From the UHGV virus genome UHGV-0404708: 39,970 bases of DNA. One strand, given 5' to 3'. Of this stretch, positions 2,964-18,803 are shown piece by piece (position 1 is the first letter of the stretch; every line of letters starts with the position of its first letter). The notes under the pieces were generated by a model. It had not been told where the DNA came from. It saw nothing but the letters and a program-made list of their open reading frames with translations, and made no database searches. This stretch comes from a virus. Both the position numbers and the translations under genes were made by a program.

Positions 2964-5434
2964 TGGCTATCAGTTGGATCCAGCCCAGCTTTGCCGGTGG
3001 TGAGATTGGACCGTCGTTGTACGGTCGTATCGACATGGCGAAGTACCAGGTGGCATTGCGCAAGTGCGATAACTTTATCGTGCGGCAGTATGGGGGTGTT
3101 GAGAATCGACCAGGTACGCGTTTTGTCGGTGCCGCCAAATACCCAAATCGGAAATGCCGCCTGATCCCGTTCCAGTTCTCGACGGTTCAGACTTATGCTC
3201 TGGAGTTCGGACACCAGTACATGCGCGTTATCAAAGATGGTGCGTTGGTGCTGAACAGCAGCAATGTTATTTATGAAATTGCCACGCCATATACTGAAGC
3301 CGATCTGTTCCGAATTAAATTCACGCAAAGCGCAGACGTGCTTACGCTTGTTCATCCGGCATACCCGCCGAAAGAGTTGCGTCGCTATGCGCATGACAAC
3401 TGGCAACTGGTTGATGTGGTAACGAAGAACGGACCATTTGAAGATATCAATATTGACGAGTCAGTGACGGTTTATGCCAGCGCCAGCACCGGGACAATTA
3501 CGTTAACGGCAAGCGCCTCTATTTTTGGCGCGGAGCAGGTAGGCAAATTGTTCTATCTGGAACAGCCTGCTGTGGATTCTGTGCCGGTATGGGAAACCAG
3601 TAAGAGTACGTCGATTGGCGATATTCGCCGTGCAGACAGTAACTACTATCGCGCCGTTACAGCAGGCAAAACAGGCACTTTGCGCCCTTCGCATACAGAA
3701 GGCACATCATGGGATGGCTGGGGCGGCTCCGGTGATGATGATACTGGCATTGAGTGGGAGTATCTGCACAGTGGTTTTGGCATTGCCCGTATAACTGCTG
3801 TAAATGGCACCTCAGCAACTGCCGAGGTGATTTCCTATATCCCTTCGCAGGTAGTTGGCGAGGATAATGCCAGCTATAAATGGGCTAAATATGCCTGGAA
3901 CAGTATTAACGGTTATCCTGGCACTGTTGTTTATTATCAACAACGTCTTTACTTCGCCGCATCGACTGCGTTCCCTCAGACTATCTGGGCCAGCCGTACT
4001 GGGGATTATAAGGATTTTGGCAAAAGCAATCCTACGCAGGATGACGACAGAATTATCTACACCTATGCCGGGCGTCAGGTTAATGAGATCCGCCACCTGA
4101 TTGATGTTGGTTCGCTGGTAGCGCTGACTTCCGGAGGTGAGTACGTCATCACCGGCGACCAGAACAAAGTATTAACCCCATCATCATTTGCATTCAGCTC
4201 TCAGGGATCAAATGGCTCGAGCAATGTCCCACCAATTGCCGTGGCGAATATTGCTCTGTTCGTCCAGGAGAAAGGCAGTGTTGTCCGTGATCTGGCCTAC
4301 TCATTCGATGTTGACGGCTATCAGGGGAACGACCTGACCATCCTTGCCAATCATCTTTTTCAGAAGCACAGCATTGTTGACTGGTGCTTCTCTATTGTCC
4401 CTTACTCCAGCGCCTTCTGCATTCGTGATGACGGTAAATTACTGGTGATGACCTATTTGCGTGATCAGCAGGTTTTTGCATGGGCACCACAATCCAGTAC
4501 CGGAAAATATGAAAGCACATGCAGTATCAGCGAAGGCAATGAAGATGCGGTGTATTTCGTCGTTAACCGAACCGTTAACGGGCAAACAGTGAGATACATC
4601 GAGCGGCTGTCCAGCCGTTTATTTACCAGCGATGAAGATGCTTTCTTTGTTGATTCTGGCCTTAGCTATGATGGAAGAAATACGTCTGACAGAACGATGA
4701 CCATCACTGGTGGTTCTGGTGAATGGGATTACCGTGCGGAATATACAATCAGTGTTTCTGGTGGTGCGTACTTCACCAGTAGTGATGTCGGTGCGCAACT
4801 ACAGTTCCCTTATACCGGAACTGATCCTGATACTGGCGATGAAGTGTCAAAAGAATTACGTTGCGACATTATTTCTGTAACCAGCAATACCGCTGTAGTG
4901 GTTCGTCCTAACAGGAACGTCCCGCCATCCCTCAGGAATGTGGCCACCACGAACTGGCAGATGGCGCGCCGGACATTTGGCGGCTTGTCTCATCTTGAAG
5001 GTCAGACCGTAAACATCCTCTCTGATGCGAACGTGGAACCACAGAAAGTAGTTTCCGGAGGTGCCGTCACGCTGGAATCTCCGGGGGCTGTAGTGCACAT
5101 CGGCCTGCCAATAACTGCTGAATTCGAAACACTGGATATCAACATTAACGGACAGGAAACGCTGCTGGACAAAAAACAGGTGATCCCGTCAGTTACTCTG
5201 GTTGTGAATGCCAGTCGCGGCATCTGGGCGACTACGCCCGGCGGTAAATGGTACGAATATCCACAGCGTGAATTCGAGTTCTACGATGATCCTGTTGATG
5301 ATGCTACCGGAAAAGTAGAAGTGAAGCTGGACAGTAACTGGGGCAAAAACGGACGTGTAAAAATCCGTCAGCTTGACCCGTTGCCGCTGTCTGTTCTTGC
5401 CGTTATTCCTCGCCTTACTGTTGGGGGATTCTGA
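2963..5434 (+). CDS. tail tubular protein B-like (nozzle)
   Basis: 823 aa; size, position and N-terminus (MA-IS...GGE) consistent with T7 gp12-type proteins; not searched. Confidence 0.55.
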   Translation: MAISWIQPSFAGGEIGPSLYGRIDMAKYQVALRKCDNFIVRQYGGVENRPGTRFVGAAKYPNRKCRLIPFQFSTVQTYALEFGHQYMRVIKDGALVLNSSNVIYEIATPYTEADLFRIKFTQSADVLTLVHPAYPPKELRRYAHDNWQLVDVVTKNGPFEDINIDESVTVYASASTGTITLTASASIFGAEQVGKLFYLEQPAVDSVPVWETSKSTSIGDIRRADSNYYRAVTAGKTGTLRPSHTEGTSWDGWGGSGDDDTGIEWEYLHSGFGIARITAVNGTSATAEVISYIPSQVVGEDNASYKWAKYAWNSINGYPGTVVYYQQRLYFAASTAFPQTIWASRTGDYKDFGKSNPTQDDDRIIYTYAGRQVNEIRHLIDVGSLVALTSGGEYVITGDQNKVLTPSSFAFSSQGSNGSSNVPPIAVANIALFVQEKGSVVRDLAYSFDVDGYQGNDLTILANHLFQKHSIVDWCFSIVPYSSAFCIRDDGKLLVMTYLRDQQVFAWAPQSSTGKYESTCSISEGNEDAVYFVVNRTVNGQTVRYIERLSSRLFTSDEDAFFVDSGLSYDGRNTSDRTMTITGGSGEWDYRAEYTISVSGGAYFTSSDVGAQLQFPYTGTDPDTGDEVSKELRCDIISVTSNTAVVVRPNRNVPPSLRNVATTNWQMARRTFGGLSHLEGQTVNILSDANVEPQKVVSGGAVTLESPGAVVHIGLPITAEFETLDININGQETLLDKKQVIPSVTLVVNASRGIWATTPGGKWYEYPQREFEFYDDPVDDATGKVEVKLDSNWGKNGRVKIRQLDPLPLSVLAVIPRLTVGGF

Positions 5435-13430: not shown

Positions 13431-13727
13431 ATGCAAGCTATAGGATTCATTGTTTATATCGTCGTTGGTCTTTTTCAGTTGGCAGCAATTATGGCTGGGC
13501 TTGAATCATGGTGGGGATTGCACTGGATAATTGCAGCCCCCATCGCTTTCATCGTGAGCTATATTCCATTTGTTGGAGCGATTGTTGGTATGGTTGGCGC
13601 TGTGGATGTATGGCGGTGGGAGTGGTGGCAGGCTGGCCTTCTCTTCTTTGGTGGGATCATCTTTGCTATTGTCTGCGGTGGAATGTCATCATTTTTCGAA
13701 CGGCTATCATTCAGAAAAGGAACGTGA
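13431..13727 (+). CDS. small integral membrane protein
   Basis: 98 aa with 3-4 hydrophobic helices; SD AGGTGA; stop codon lies inside a GTGACATGTCAC palindrome. Confidence 0.6.
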   Translation: MQAIGFIVYIVVGLFQLAAIMAGLESWWGLHWIIAAPIAFIVSYIPFVGAIVGMVGAVDVWRWEWWQAGLLFFGGIIFAIVCGGMSSFFERLSFRKGT

Positions 13728-13735
13728 CATGTCAC
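13724..13735. repeat. GTGACATGTCAC palindrome, copy 1
   Basis: Perfect 12-bp palindrome containing the TGA stop of 13431..13727; directly 5' of a terminator. Confidence 0.8.
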
Positions 13736-13736
13736 A

Positions 13737-13760
13737 GGCCGCTTTCGCGGCCTTGTTTTT
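13737..13760 (+). terminator. rho-independent terminator
   Basis: GGCCGC-TTTC-GCGGCC followed by TTGTTTTT. Confidence 0.7.
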
Positions 13761-13920
13761 AACGAATGCCACCGCCGCCAGGGCGGGAATCCGCAGAACG
13801 CCCACCGCAGCGGGAGCCGTCAGCGGCAGTATCGCTGTCGTGCTGACAACGACCGGCAAAGGCCTGAGTTGAAGCTACCAGAGACAACAAAACGAACAGT
13901 GCAGCAAATGCTTTTTTCAT
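13759..13920 (-). CDS. small secreted peptide (Sec-type signal peptide, 31-aa Gly/Arg/Ser-rich mature part with 2 Cys)
   Basis: ATG at 13920 (in frame within track ORF 13759..13944); n-region MKK, hydrophobic core, AFA cleavage-like motif; weak SD; higher GC than neighbours. Confidence 0.35.
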   Translation of the reverse strand: MKKAFAALFVLLSLVASTQAFAGRCQHDSDTAADGSRCGGRSADSRPGGGGIR

Positions 13921-13991
13921 TTGAAATTTCCATCTATAAGCCACCTCAATGTGGCGTCAATGAGTGTAGCACTGACTTTTGTTTCATCCAC

Positions 13992-14012
13992 AAAAAAGCC
14001 CGCGCTGCGGGC
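13992..14012 (-). terminator. rho-independent terminator ending the minus-strand accessory operon
   Basis: Minus sense: GCCCGC-AGC-GCGGGC followed by TTTTTT; a few nt 3' of the stop of 14018..14650. Confidence 0.65.
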
Positions 14013-14017
14013 TTCTA

Positions 14018-14650
14018 TTAATGCAGTTTATCTTTGCTTATAACCAGTAGTCTGTGGGTATGCACATCTTTATCACTGCCCCAACAGAAATCAGCCCACT
14101 GGCTATAGAAATCATCCCATGATGTCATGAAGCTAAGAGGTCTATCTTCTTCAGAGCCATCTGAAACGTATACATTATATCCTGGGGTGTTTATAGCCCA
14201 AGAAATCATTCTTTCCCAGAATCTTCTCCCATCGATTGTTTGTTGCTCATCAGATACAACGATCGCATATTGCTCTAGGAAGAACTGAAAAAAAATCTGA
14301 GGCAAACCATGAACAGCACGGTCATGAATAACATTAGGCGTACGCCATACCATGATCTGCGTACATGTTCTTTTGGCTTCGACGATATCTTCCCGAAAGA
14401 TTAACTTAACCGCATACACCGTTTCTGGAGTATCGCTGGTAGTAATCATTCTGTAATGATCGCCATTACAAGATTTTACAAGGCGATAACCATAAGGTGT
14501 TGTGAATCCCGGAAGAACGAAATCAACCACACCTTTCGCTAAGTAGCTTTCGGTGTGACTAGTGTTCTTCTCAGACATGTTCAGTTTTCTATCGAAATCT
14601 GCTTCTGGGATAATGTATGGCATCGCTTTTCTTGTTGTATTTGTTCTCAT
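14018..14650 (-). CDS. hypothetical protein (unrecognised, accessory)
   Basis: Track ORF 14018..14662; ATG 14650 preferred (SD GGAGGA 5 nt upstream); AT-rich; own operator-like site upstream. Confidence 0.7.
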   Translation of the reverse strand: MRTNTTRKAMPYIIPEADFDRKLNMSEKNTSHTESYLAKGVVDFVLPGFTTPYGYRLVKSCNGDHYRMITTSDTPETVYAVKLIFREDIVEAKRTCTQIMVWRTPNVIHDRAVHGLPQIFFQFFLEQYAIVVSDEQQTIDGRRFWERMISWAINTPGYNVYVSDGSEEDRPLSFMTSWDDFYSQWADFCWGSDKDVHTHRLLVISKDKLH

Positions 14651-14708
14651 TTCGTCCTCCATGTTTGGCTACAGGACGCGTTTTGAAGGGAAGATTAAAA
14701 ATGCTTTC

Positions 14709-14795: not shown

Positions 14796-15515
14796 TCAGA
14801 AGAACCCTGCCTTGTCGTTGATGTACTCCGCGTGCGTCTGGATATCACGCAGGCATTTGCTCACACCGACGATGTAGCAGAACATGGTGGTCAGCTCCGC
14901 CGCCGCGCCCGATACGTCGTGCCCGTCGTCCTGTAACTGGTTCAGCAGATTCATCAGCAGTGAGTTCTCAGTCAGGCCGAGAACACCAGACGGGGAATGA
15001 ATCAGGCTGCGGTAGCCGGGCTTCAGCGGGGCACTGTATTCTTTTTTGTCTTCCAGCTTGATCGCCTCCATAATGGCGGGCATGAATTTTTCAATTACCT
15101 GAGTGGCCTTTGATAAATCAGCTCCACCTGAGAGACGAACATCTCCACTGACATTTGCGGGTTTTCTGTCGAAGTAGCAATCTTCCAGTTTTTCGAAGAC
15201 CTCCCACGCTTTTTCAGTCTCAAGAATTTTCGCATGTCGTGCTGCACCGCGAGCGGTCCATAAGAAAAGATGACTTACTTTTGGTGCAATATTAAGCAAA
15301 CCTCTTTGAGAGGACTCGTTCTTAAATGCTCGTAATTCTTCGCCTGTCAGCTTGAAACAATGTTTTCCCTCAATGAATCGATCTGCATTTCGTTGATAGT
15401 TTTGACGAATCAGTTTGGGTTCTGTGTCATACAAATCAGCAAGCATTTCTGTAGTCATTACAGGGATGTTGCAATGAGTTGTTATCGGCAACTTATCAAT
15501 AGCTATATTACGCAT
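14796..15515 (-). CDS. ORF6N-domain protein with C-terminal domain paralogous to 16329..16586 (antirepressor-like)
   Basis: Track ORF 14796..15530; ATG 15515 preferred (SD GGAGG, 8-nt overlap with upstream stop); N-terminus fits the ORF6N/KilA-N-type DNA-binding pattern; C-terminal ~60 aa align with the 85-aa protein. Confidence 0.65.
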   Translation of the reverse strand: MRNIAIDKLPITTHCNIPVMTTEMLADLYDTEPKLIRQNYQRNADRFIEGKHCFKLTGEELRAFKNESSQRGLLNIAPKVSHLFLWTARGAARHAKILETEKAWEVFEKLEDCYFDRKPANVSGDVRLSGGADLSKATQVIEKFMPAIMEAIKLEDKKEYSAPLKPGYRSLIHSPSGVLGLTENSLLMNLLNQLQDDGHDVSGAAAELTTMFCYIVGVSKCLRDIQTHAEYINDKAGFF

Positions 15516-16014
15516 TTTCATTGCCTCCATCTTTCACGACGAAATAGCAATTATCTTTATAATCTAACTGGATGAACTTTATGTTTTCAGGGAGTTTTAC
15601 AGAAAGAGTTTTTGCACAAGCAAAACCAAAATCTGCGCCAGAAGCATCCATATACCTTAATAATTGTTTTAATGCTGAAGGAGAAAAAGTATCTACCTTC
15701 ACCTCAACAGGGTAACCATCTTTTGTTTTTAGGTCTGGTTGACCTGGTCCACCAAGTATTTCAGCGTTAAGGTATTTTGCTATTTCTGGATAAGCGTTGT
15801 ATTCAGAGCGTAGTTTTGCCTTGTTATCGACTGCTAGTTGCATAAGATGATCAAACAAATTGGTATCTAAATCTGCCCCTTCATCCCACATTCTATTTCT
15901 ACAGCTAATCAATTCACTGACCAGAGGTGCACTTTCTTGCCTTAGCATAAGAAGGAGTGGAGAATTAGAAATTAACCAATACAGATCGTCGTTTGAGATT
16001 TTTTGGCCTGGCAT
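15508..16014 (-). CDS. hypothetical protein, possible PD-(D/E)xK-like motif
   Basis: 168 aa; SD AGAGGT 7 nt before ATG; segment GQPDL...YPVEVK resembles a D...E-x-K nuclease motif (weak); translationally coupled to next gene. Confidence 0.6.
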   Translation of the reverse strand: MPGQKISNDDLYWLISNSPLLLMLRQESAPLVSELISCRNRMWDEGADLDTNLFDHLMQLAVDNKAKLRSEYNAYPEIAKYLNAEILGGPGQPDLKTKDGYPVEVKVDTFSPSALKQLLRYMDASGADFGFACAKTLSVKLPENIKFIQLDYKDNCYFVVKDGGNENA

Positions 16015-16781: not shown

Positions 16782-18803
16782 ATGACGGTCTCAACCGAAG
16801 TTGGCCACAACGAATACACTGGTAACGGCGTTACGACTACATTCCCTTATACATTCAGGGTTTTCGATAAATCTGATCTGGTAGTGCAGATAGTTGACCT
16901 TGAAGAGAATATCACTGTCCTGGTTCTTGATACCGATTACTCAGTAACCGGGGTGGGGGGATACAATGGTGGCAATGTAATGCTGAGGACAGCGTTAACT
17001 TCTGGTTATCGTATTTTTGTATCGCGTGAGCTGCCTGTTACGCAGGAAACAGATCTGCGCAATCAGGGAAAGTTTCTGGCAGAGGTGCATGAGGATGCAT
17101 TTGATAAGCTGACGATGCTTATTCAGCAAGTATTTTATAACCTGAGCAAGGTAATAAAAGTTCCTGAATCAGGGAACTGGTTGGTTCCAACAATTAGGTT
17201 AAGAAAGAATAAAATCTTTGCATGGGACGAAGAGGGAAATCCAATTGCTGTATCACCTGAATCAGGTAGTGCCTCCGATGTAATGATTGAGCTGGCAAAA
17301 TCATCCGGGGCTGGGTTGATTGGCACAACGTCGGGGGGGACCGTTCAATCAGTGCTGGATGACTGTCATGCAAGGCTCATCACATGTGAGCGCAACAGCC
17401 GGGTGGAAAATTTTTACACGCTGGCGGAAACCTGCACAGCGGAGCTTTTATCGCTGAATGCCCCGGAGGCATATGACAAATCCATTACGCTGACGGTCAA
17501 TGAGGAACTGACCACAGACTATACCGGTCCGGTCACAGGTCATTGCAGCATCGGTAATCCGCAGAACTACACCATTGCGATGTGTACGAGCACAACTCTG
17601 GAATATCAGGTTTCCTCGGTGGTACTGGAGAGTGACGGCACGTTCAGTTTCGCCAGAAGCTGGACGGGGGCTAAGTCTTTTAAACTGTATCGTACATCAA
17701 ATAACGGTCTGGTAACCGTCTGGGAAGATCCGCTGTGTATACGTTCTTACCGGATGCCATCGGATGCCGGAGACGAAACGGTAAGGGTAATGAAAGACCG
17801 TACGTACACCTACGACCAGGCGGTGTCGGCCATTGCCCTGATGGCGCAGGGGCACAGTCAGACTGAGCGTTTTGTTCGCGGGTTGTGTGCGATTGTGGGT
17901 AGTGGTGGTAGCGAGGGGAGTGTGCCTTTTTTCGTGAACCGCATGTCAGCGCAGACATCGTCACAGTATTACCGGACGGGAAACGCAGCGTGGGTGGCGT
18001 ATGCGCTGGCGTATTATCTGCTGAAATATCCGGACGGTGAAATGGCCGTTGTTGCCCGGGATAAACTGACGCAGTGCGCAGAATGGATTGAAACGTTCAG
18101 AGTGGCAGACAACGGAGATATTCGTTATGGGTTGTATACATCCGGTAGCGGACGGTATCTGGATGGCGTCTTTTACCCTGATTTTAAAGCAGACTGGTGC
18201 ACATCGGAGCACCAGTTTGATTTGTGGTTTCTGTTTGACCTGATGGGGCGGGTGGGCTTCACCGGCTACGCTGAAAAGGCGAAAGCCCTGGCGGATGCCA
18301 TTATGGAAAAGCTGTGGGTGGAGGATGAAGGGCGATTTTATGCCGGGATGCGAACCACCGGGCCTGACAAGGCCTCACCACTGGACTGTGCAAGCTGGGG
18401 CGGGCTGTTTGTGTCCAATATCGATATGGAAAAAGCCCGGCGGTGTTTTACTTACCTGGACAGATTCTGGTACGCCACGCACGATGCGACAGGGTACACG
18501 CCTTATCATCCGGAATATGGCTACCCGAATAAACAGCGGGGAGTCTGGGTGGAGGGCAGTGCAGGCGTGGCATTGCTGGCCCGTAGACTGGGAGATGATG
18601 CCACCGCGATGGATATTCTGGCGAGGCTGGCACCACTGCGCACACGTTATGGTTACATTGATTCAAGCGATTATCCAGATAATGATGACATGCCGCCGTG
18701 GCCCTCTTCCTGCAACACGGCCTGGATGATACTGGCATGCGATCCGCAGGGGTTCTGGAACGTTGGGGTAAGTAGTCTGTCTGGACGTTATTATAGGTAT
18801 TGA
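16782..18803 (+). CDS. tail fiber/tailspike with T7-type N-terminal attachment domain and a distinct C-terminal domain
   Basis: 673 aa; N-terminus (YTGNGVTTTFPYTF...DTDY) follows the T7 gp17 N-domain pattern; C-terminal ~380 aa Trp/Tyr-rich. Confidence 0.75.
   Translation: MTVSTEVGHNEYTGNGVTTTFPYTFRVFDKSDLVVQIVDLEENITVLVLDTDYSVTGVGGYNGGNVMLRTALTSGYRIFVSRELPVTQETDLRNQGKFLAEVHEDAFDKLTMLIQQVFYNLSKVIKVPESGNWLVPTIRLRKNKIFAWDEEGNPIAVSPESGSASDVMIELAKSSGAGLIGTTSGGTVQSVLDDCHARLITCERNSRVENFYTLAETCTAELLSLNAPEAYDKSITLTVNEELTTDYTGPVTGHCSIGNPQNYTIAMCTSTTLEYQVSSVVLESDGTFSFARSWTGAKSFKLYRTSNNGLVTVWEDPLCIRSYRMPSDAGDETVRVMKDRTYTYDQAVSAIALMAQGHSQTERFVRGLCAIVGSGGSEGSVPFFVNRMSAQTSSQYYRTGNAAWVAYALAYYLLKYPDGEMAVVARDKLTQCAEWIETFRVADNGDIRYGLYTSGSGRYLDGVFYPDFKADWCTSEHQFDLWFLFDLMGRVGFTGYAEKAKALADAIMEKLWVEDEGRFYAGMRTTGPDKASPLDCASWGGLFVSNIDMEKARRCFTYLDRFWYATHDATGYTPYHPEYGYPNKQRGVWVEGSAGVALLARRLGDDATAMDILARLAPLRTRYGYIDSSDYPDNDDMPPWPSSCNTAWMILACDPQGFWNVGVSSLSGRYYRY

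Follow-up and report, generated by a model that had tools for sequence, protein, structure and literature searches.

Does the short open reading frame at the end of the leftward accessory island of an E. coli prophage encode a genuine exported peptide and, if so, what might such a peptide do for the lysogen? The question arises on the minus strand of the viral genome UHGV-0404708, the whole 39,970-nucleotide stretch of which is referred to below as the window. A small ORF runs there from the ATG at 13920-13918 to the TAA at 13761-13759, and its 53 codons translate into MKKAFAALFVLLSLVASTQAFAGRCQHDSDTAADGSRCGGRSADSRPGGGGIR (53 aa), that is, 22 residues resembling a signal peptide followed by 31 residues that include two cysteines, C25 and C38 (codons 13846-13848 and 13807-13809). 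An earlier note, made from the letters of the DNA, had drawn attention to this frame and had left two options for it, a gene for a small exported Cys-containing peptide or a spurious ORF; the ORF, with its ATG at 13920 and its two-Cys 31-residue peptide after a signal-like stretch, was recovered exactly as the note had it.

Coding evidence and catalogued relatives

A protein search with the product of the small ORF yielded 57 close clusters in Enterobacterales, distributed over the genera Escherichia, Shigella, Klebsiella, Citrobacter, Cronobacter, Franconibacter, Salmonella, Pectobacterium and Dickeya. Across these clusters the segment G23-G49 is near-invariant, and the signal peptide is variable but hydrophobic. 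Selection was analysed on 14 coding sequences, each taken from a different Enterobacterales genus. Synonymous sites are saturated in this set (pS 0.70), and pN amounts to 0.14 in the mature part (dN/dS ~0.08) and to 0.26 in the signal part (dN/dS ~0.15), which changes faster than the mature part yet stays hydrophobic; for the coding sequence of the precursor (13759..13920, minus strand, stop included) dN/dS is ~0.1. The third position varies in 28 of the 28 mature codons, the first in 12 and the second in 10. The annotated frame is the only one that is open in all 14 relatives, and the other frames contain stops in most of them. Conservation of the frame in relatives was the check that the earlier note had proposed, and its outcome, a frame kept under purifying selection, is the reason for which the 'spurious ORF' option is rejected, being contradicted by dN/dS and by frame openness across the 14 genera; the option of an exported Cys-containing peptide is favoured by the same conservation together with the junction and the Cys spacing described below. 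By these comparisons, the small ORF is a genuine prophage accessory gene and not a chance ORF. The 33 distinct nucleotide versions of the identical peptide present in IMG/VR were excluded as evidence of selection, because the 80 loci concerned are the best-scoring peptide matches and all encode the identical peptide.

Two other ways of reading the same DNA were considered. A mechanically produced ORF list prolongs the frame to a GTG at 13944, giving 61 aa; this start is rejected because the extension is unconserved in relatives and the ATG, within ATG-AAA-AAA, is invariant. An alternative ORF of 37 aa in another frame of the same strand (13820..13933) was discarded as well, its ATG being missing in several genera and its frame containing stops in relatives; this ATG sits 7 nt past a strong Shine-Dalgarno-like GAGGTGG, which is the 3' arm of the leader hairpin described below. 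The GC-richer patch to which the earlier note had pointed is real: GC content is 66.7% in the mature part and 57.4% in the whole ORF, against 49.3% in the window and 41-47% in the neighbouring genes, and only 0.2% of 96-nt segments reach 66.7%. The richness of the mature part is accounted for by its Gly, Arg, Ala and Pro codons.

The gene is already catalogued, and what it encodes is of an ordinary kind, a small, predicted-exported protein of a moron. The identical 53-aa protein is deposited as RefSeq WP_000708858.1, labelled "transmembrane anchored protein" or hypothetical; it matches the PHROG 14503 profile over positions 1-53 of 53 (E 2.3e-40), a profile with the label 'membrane associated protein' in the moron category; and it is annotated in the phages TL-2011b (gp43, 'putative transmembrane anchored protein'), phiv142-3 (Orf11) and EC.W1-9. 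The entries WP_000708858.1, PHROG 14503, TL-2011b gp43 and phiv142-3 Orf11 share the sequence considered here and are themselves predictions. Literature searches turned up no experimental basis for the name 'transmembrane anchored protein', and no match to the protein name, the accession or the motif strings of the module described below. The paper on phiv142-3, the only experimental one on a prophage with the identical ORF, is centred on the neighbouring orf10, which is reported as induced 2^4.12-fold in chicken serum and as required for serum resistance, and not on the identical small ORF, orf11; no orf11 mutant was made in that work, and orf11 is missing from the table of serum-induced genes, which does not address basal expression (PMC7724020). 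In the phiv142-3 record (MN187550), orf10 (52 aa, locus 3867-4025) lies just upstream of the identical small ORF, and it is absent from the window.

The predicted export signal and the widespread mini-domain

The first 22 residues of the precursor, MKKAFAALFVLLSLVASTQAFA (13855..13920, minus strand), were assigned as a signal peptide from the family junction and from hydrophobicity. They divide into MKK, AFAALFVLLSLVA and STQAFA and thereby offer the features expected of a predicted Sec/SPase I substrate, namely a positive n-region, a hydrophobic h-region and small residues at -3 and -1 (STQ-A-F-A, then G); the AF2 model places a helix at residues 2-15. Among 124 stand-alone family members the junction reads A/S/V(-5)-x-A(-3)-G(-2)-N/R/P(-1)-Cys, with the predicted cut before G(-2): A occupies the third position before the Cys in 106/124, A/S/V the fifth in 119/124, and the spacing between the two Cys is fixed at 12 residues. 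None of the 124 has a lipobox ([LVI][ASTVI][GAS]C) at the first Cys, which is preceded here by A-G-R, and processing as a lipoprotein by SPase II is rejected on that count. The conserved A-x-A-G-N-C junction and the missing lipobox argue for cleavage by signal peptidase I, and the conserved small -3/-1 residues, the missing lipobox and the fixed Cys spacing in the 124 members speak for the Sec signal peptide that the earlier note had predicted. This cleavage-site signature clashes with the database name 'transmembrane anchored'.

Signal peptidase I would thus cut after A-F-A22, between residues 22 and 23, and free the basic 31-residue peptide GRCQHDSDTAADGSRCGGRSADSRPGGGGIR (13762..13854, minus strand), in which G23-G49 is near-invariant and carries the module, into the periplasm, where it would reside. 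A disulfide between C25 and C38 would then close a 12-residue loop; DsbA is the usual catalyst of such bonds. The calculated mass of the mature peptide is 3058.2 Da in the oxidised form, and its calculated pI is 8.1. None of the tested Pfam and NCBIfam models matches the peptide at E <= 1.

The conserved core extends far beyond Enterobacterales and is not confined to phages. It follows the signature C-x4-D-x-A-x-D-G-S-R-C-G-x-R-[SA]-x3-R-P-G-G, a module of ~27 residues, which was sought by scans with back-translated motifs and by profile searches. The module occurs at 57 genome loci, including Rhizobiales, cyanobacteria, Vibrio, Bacteriovorax and myxobacteria (with the genera Mesorhizobium, Devosia, Methylobacterium, Rhizobium, Bradyrhizobium, Agrobacterium, Dolichospermum/Anabaena/Nostoc, Vibrio, Bacteriovorax and a myxobacterium). 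With a profile built on the 33 residues of the mature region, 222 representatives are retrieved at 50% identity; when the profile is built on the full precursor, the yield is 1024 clusters at 90% identity. The phyla represented are Proteobacteria, Cyanobacteria and others. Among 240 copies of the module, 125 are stand-alone (<=80 aa), 67 are C-terminal in longer proteins, 24 come right after a signal peptide and the remaining 24 are internal; 192/240 lie at the C-terminal end, and a hydrophobic segment is found within 45 residues upstream of the module in 179/240. In the longer proteins with a C-terminal module, the module typically comes after a TM segment and a Gly linker. Partner domains in the 96 longer proteins are few (~10/96) and all extracytoplasmic, and comprise SH3_3 (5), SH3_4 (2), PG_binding_1 (2), T2SS-T3SS_pil_N (2) and NucA/NucB (1).

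Several variants of the module recur. A four-Cys extended form, GNCPCPYNxAxNGSRCGGRSAYSRPGGxSPxCY, is present in 20 representatives and has no Pfam, NCBIfam or PDB match; it is flanked by conserved helices, making up a domain of ~65 residues, and is sometimes accompanied by SH3_3 or PG_binding_1. Two recurring architectures both start with a signal peptide that leads into the module. In one, an 'EVPPPEY' linker then connects to C-terminal domains that vary strongly; in the other, 'RNPDTDW', a TM helix and a conserved cytoplasmic domain of ~150 aa come next. Both are devoid of a Pfam family. No Pfam or NCBIfam model covers the module in the 10 + 96 longer members inspected, and PDB sequence searches with the module profile, a four-Cys member and a four-Cys profile returned nothing significant. 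The AF2 models are of moderate to low confidence, with pLDDT of 74-83 for the module in the peptide model and 56-67 in the four-Cys variant, and yielded no fold match. Among 85 + 26 neighbouring ORFs no conserved gene family was found, which argues against a dedicated maturase, transporter, receptor or immunity partner. As judged from these alignments and profiles, the core of the peptide is a stand-alone copy of a broad extracytoplasmic module, and the new element of the locus is that this core is an undescribed mini-domain spanning several phyla.

Prophage setting, cassette borders and putative expression signals

The window is a Uetakevirus-type (epsilon15/phiV10-like) E. coli prophage, and the stretch is 100% identical to the E. 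coli chromosome NZ_OZ040331.1. Flanked by the virion operon and the tailspike gene (16782-18803) lies an island of leftward-reading accessory genes, of which the small ORF comes last; its other members are a small gene of the 258-bp type, one for a BRO-N/ORF6N protein and one that varies. The adjoining virion operon, on the plus strand, includes an 824-aa protein and a 98-aa membrane protein. The 98-aa protein (PHROG 3075; 13431-13727, plus strand) is multi-pass, ends the virion operon and converges on the cassette described below; it bears a weak, sub-threshold likeness to the holin family Hol44 (E 0.027), and in phiV10 its place is taken by a shorter two-TM protein. The BRO-N/ORF6N protein (14796-15530, minus strand; Pfam ORF6N, E 6.5e-20) matches three PADLOC candidate-system models, the best being PDC-S05 (E 1.1e-9).

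Alignment of five contexts delimits a cassette of 292 bp (13723-14014) with sharp borders, outside of which the sequences are unrelated. A 296-bp query (13720-14015) finds matches in 537 of 5426 complete E. coli genomes, with coverage of at least 80% in 422 of the 5426 (~8%) and identity almost always above 95%. A relative of the peptide is encoded by 305 viral contigs of IMG/VR; the best 80 of these 305 encode the identical peptide within a single cassette cluster, and their upstream flanks fall into 10 types and their downstream flanks into 8, with over 40 pairings of the two. Records of isolated phages contain the peptide in 12/50,697 cases, all of them E. coli and Klebsiella phages, and the phages bearing the cassette are of differing types (TL-2011b, EC.W1-9, Klebsiella phages). 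What phiV10 retains (locus 3501-3560) is the palindrome, the hairpin annotated as 'terminator' and ~25 nt from the 3' end of the ORF, fused to unrelated sequence; from this alignment, the phiV10 stretch is a deletion remnant of the cassette.

The gene just upstream of the cassette is not constant: YafO-like toxins of two types, DUF4760 and DUF2335 genes and at least five further genes that lack a Pfam family occur there, and in the window this slot (14018-14662, minus strand) is occupied by a 214-aa PHROG 1349 protein. In phages with the identical peptide the slot contains at least 10 unrelated sequences. PADLOC gave no match for the upstream-slot genes and none for the small peptide. Bounded on one side by the BRO-N gene and on the other by the cassette, the slot has the look of a hotspot for cargo or defence genes. 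Since one and the same cassette is found between many different upstream and downstream neighbours, and since it is present in some and absent from other related phages with sharp borders in varied contexts and deviates in base composition, we conclude from sequence comparison that it behaves as a phage moron beside a cargo-swap site, in agreement with the 'accessory island' framing of the earlier note and with the possible lysogenic conversion that it named. Morons were reportedly defined for HK97 and HK022 by Juhala et al. in 2000 (Hendrix and colleagues), with the lambda genes bor and lom as examples. The cassette shares with the HK97/HK022 morons the character of a small independent unit with a putative promoter and terminators, its presence or absence, its base composition and its place in an accessory region; it differs from lambda Bor and Lom in that its product is unrelated to theirs and its promoter is putative.

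The right edge of the cassette is a hairpin at 13992..14014 (minus strand; GAAGCCCGC-AGC-GCGGGCUUUUUUG, -15.3 kcal/mol, z -3.5), with a 10-bp stem read from 14014 to 13992 and followed by a U-run, which serves as the predicted terminator of the preceding 214-aa gene; it was omitted by the consensus terminator scan, and identity between unrelated phage contexts stops just past it. Leftward transcription of the small ORF would begin just after this terminator, from the cassette's own weak extended -10. The upstream DNA of the 14 genera presents a common order of elements, i.e. a TAnnnT hexamer, a short hairpin, a CA-rich stretch, and a weak Shine-Dalgarno with the ATG. In the window the hexamer is TACACT (13968-13963), interpreted as a putative extended -10 through the TGC in front of it (TGC-TACACT, 13963..13971, minus strand); its T1, A2 and T6 are invariant or nearly so in the 14 genera aligned, and in every one of them the leader hairpin follows the TAnnnT at a distance of 4-8 nt. 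A consensus scan found no sigma-70 promoter for the small ORF and no good -35 element. TTGACG-N16/17-TATAGA at 13959-13930 was dropped as a candidate promoter, being unconserved and having the conserved TAnnnT further upstream. The small ORF may have its own promoter, as the conserved hexamer suggests; alternatively, given the poor -35 and the missing consensus call, transcripts of the upstream gene could read through into it.

The predicted 5' end of the mRNA is a small stem-loop, GCCAC-AUUGAG-GUGGC (13940..13955, minus strand; -8.4 kcal/mol, z -3.3), present in 12/14 Enterobacterales loci with differing stem sequences and G-U wobbles; 4/4 leader pairs predicted by RNAalifold show compensatory changes. 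Stem-loops placed at the very 5' end of a transcript are known to stabilise mRNA. After this hairpin and before the Shine-Dalgarno, most Enterobacterales homologues contain a conserved (C)UACACA box (~13932-13939, minus strand), and this CA-rich part of the leader may be an unstructured translation enhancer. The weak Shine-Dalgarno, GGA (13929..13931, minus strand), precedes the ATG by 8 nt, and relatives have GGA, GGT, AGG or GAG at this position.

The transcript would end at a hairpin that it has in common with the convergent virion operon (13736..13753, either strand; AGGCCGCTTTCGCGGCCT, then TGTTTTT), which was called as a plus-strand terminator and is annotated 'terminator' in phiV10. In minus-strand RNA this hairpin and the neighbouring palindrome form a joint structure of -17.9 kcal/mol that has no U-tract, and with the T-run on the plus strand the hairpin is a canonical terminator for the virion operon and a mere hairpin for the small ORF. 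The earlier note had placed the ORF between two terminators, which is correct in essence; the upstream hairpin has its U-run, and in the downstream one the U-tract is missing on the strand of the ORF. At its left edge the cassette has a perfect palindrome of 12 bp, GTGACATGTCAC (13724..13735, either strand), immediately outside of which similarity ends; it is kept in four of five otherwise unrelated left flanks (the window, TL-2011b, GPEC128-620 and phiV10, and not EC.W1-9) and might serve as a joint for recombination or as a site to which a protein binds.

A possible role in the cell envelope and the competing readings

Taken as a whole, the reading that we hold to be somewhat better than even is that of a moron cassette which, from its own weak promoter, would produce a cleaved, disulfide-looped periplasmic peptide. 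The most likely role of this peptide would be in envelope binding, as suggested by the fusions to known domains in ~10/96 longer proteins and by the predicted location. The peptide would bind some ubiquitous component of the envelope, and the leading guesses for the ligand, peptidoglycan or a divalent cation, are prompted by the SH3_3 and PG_binding_1 partners and by the Asp/Gly-rich loop. Binding would then alter a property of the lysogen envelope and might, for example, protect against superinfection or envelope damage; that the peptide binds such a component and in this manner changes an envelope property such as superinfection exclusion is a tentative proposal, to which we give a distinctly minor chance.

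Known systems supply partial parallels to the envelope-binding reading. T4 Sp and Imm, T5 Llp and phi80 Cor are small exported phage proteins that act on the cell envelope, and the peptide resembles them in size class, in predicted envelope location and in being the product of a phage accessory gene without a partner gene; by analogy, our guess is that it may work like them. Llp and Cor are lipoproteins, whereas the peptide here has no lipobox, and no similarity of the peptide in sequence or fold to any solved structure was found. Excalibur (Pfam PF05901) and its kin are extracellular Ca2+-binding modules of the DxDxDG type. The module resembles them as a short Cys-containing extracytoplasmic unit with an Asp/Gly-rich loop (D28-x-D30-x3-D34-G35 ... 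C38), and one family member has a weak Excalibur-like stretch elsewhere in the protein; it differs in that it has no Pfam match at E <= 1 and in that its D-x3-D-G is not DxDxDG outside Enterobacterales.

The same evidence bears on three competing readings. According to one of them, the hydrophobic N-terminus stays uncleaved and the product is a signal-anchored inner-membrane protein exposing a 31-residue head to the periplasm. Such tethering would be natural in a family many larger members of which have the module directly behind a TM segment and a Gly linker, and it is the literal sense of the name 'transmembrane anchored protein' given in TL-2011b and by NCBI. However, the conserved small -3/-1 residues followed by G-N answer a need of SPase I and not that of an anchor, the h-region comprises only ~13 residues and the name is one for which no experimental basis was found, so we regard an anchored product as unlikely. 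A short precursor that bears a secretion signal and is encoded by a temperate phage might also suggest a diffusible signal or toxin, i.e. an arbitrium AimP-like peptide or a microcin-like bacteriocin. Arbitrium pro-peptides carry the active peptide at the C-terminus, and the conserved part of the small precursor is likewise at its extreme C-terminus, ending in RPGG-x; with AimP of Bacillus phages it shares a Sec-type leader and a short conserved C-terminal peptide in a temperate phage. Yet neither in Enterobacterales nor elsewhere is a receptor (such as an AimR-like gene), immunity, maturation or export gene conserved alongside; the leader is of the Sec type and not double-glycine; the mature sequence is near-invariant across phyla, whereas specificity signals would be expected to diversify; the module is also a domain of larger chromosomal envelope proteins; and passage through the outer membrane without help would not be expected of a peptide of 3 kDa. 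A signal or toxin therefore appears very improbable to us. Among the specific classes considered, a class II microcin or bacteriocin is rejected on the Sec-type leader and the lack of a conserved neighbour and of a transporter, an arbitrium system on the neighbours (YafO-like toxin, DUF4760, DUF2335 or unknown genes) and the near-invariant peptide, and a RiPP precursor on the lack of a recurring family among the 85 + 26 neighbouring ORFs.

The remaining competitor holds that the cassette is kept for a nucleic-acid role, as a terminator pair, a recombination anchor at the cargo swap site or a small RNA, with the ORF being incidental. Its border with a highly variable gene slot, its two strong hairpins and palindrome, and its nucleotide-level conservation within E. 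coli would all fit such a role. Against it stand the saturation of synonymous sites across genera while the peptide is kept, the occurrence of the same peptide module in distant phyla within unrelated DNA contexts, and the stops that interrupt the other frames in most relatives; a search against Rfam gave no family above threshold, only sub-threshold chance matches. We give this reading next to no credence.

What this peptide may mean for the phage and its host can be put more boldly, at a correspondingly lower probability. The peptide may be the minimal free form of an ancient extracytoplasmic module, with the four-Cys version as its extended form, that would recognise one universal component of the diderm envelope, captured by temperate phages of Enterobacterales as a soluble decoy or competitor, a view that we consider doubtful at present. 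If it were true, an envelope step would be blocked, such as cell-wall penetration by a superinfecting phage or the action of a host protein with the same ligand. Irrespective of the ligand, ~8% of complete E. coli genomes, many of them of clinical isolates, carry the identical, strongly constrained and predicted-exported peptide; in phiv142-3, a gene close by in this prophage island has been linked to serum resistance. The module of ~27 residues is spread over several phyla and has no record in Pfam, NCBIfam, PDB or the literature; with no domain record and more than 1000 clusters, a single binding or structure result on the 31-mer could annotate more than 1000 protein clusters.
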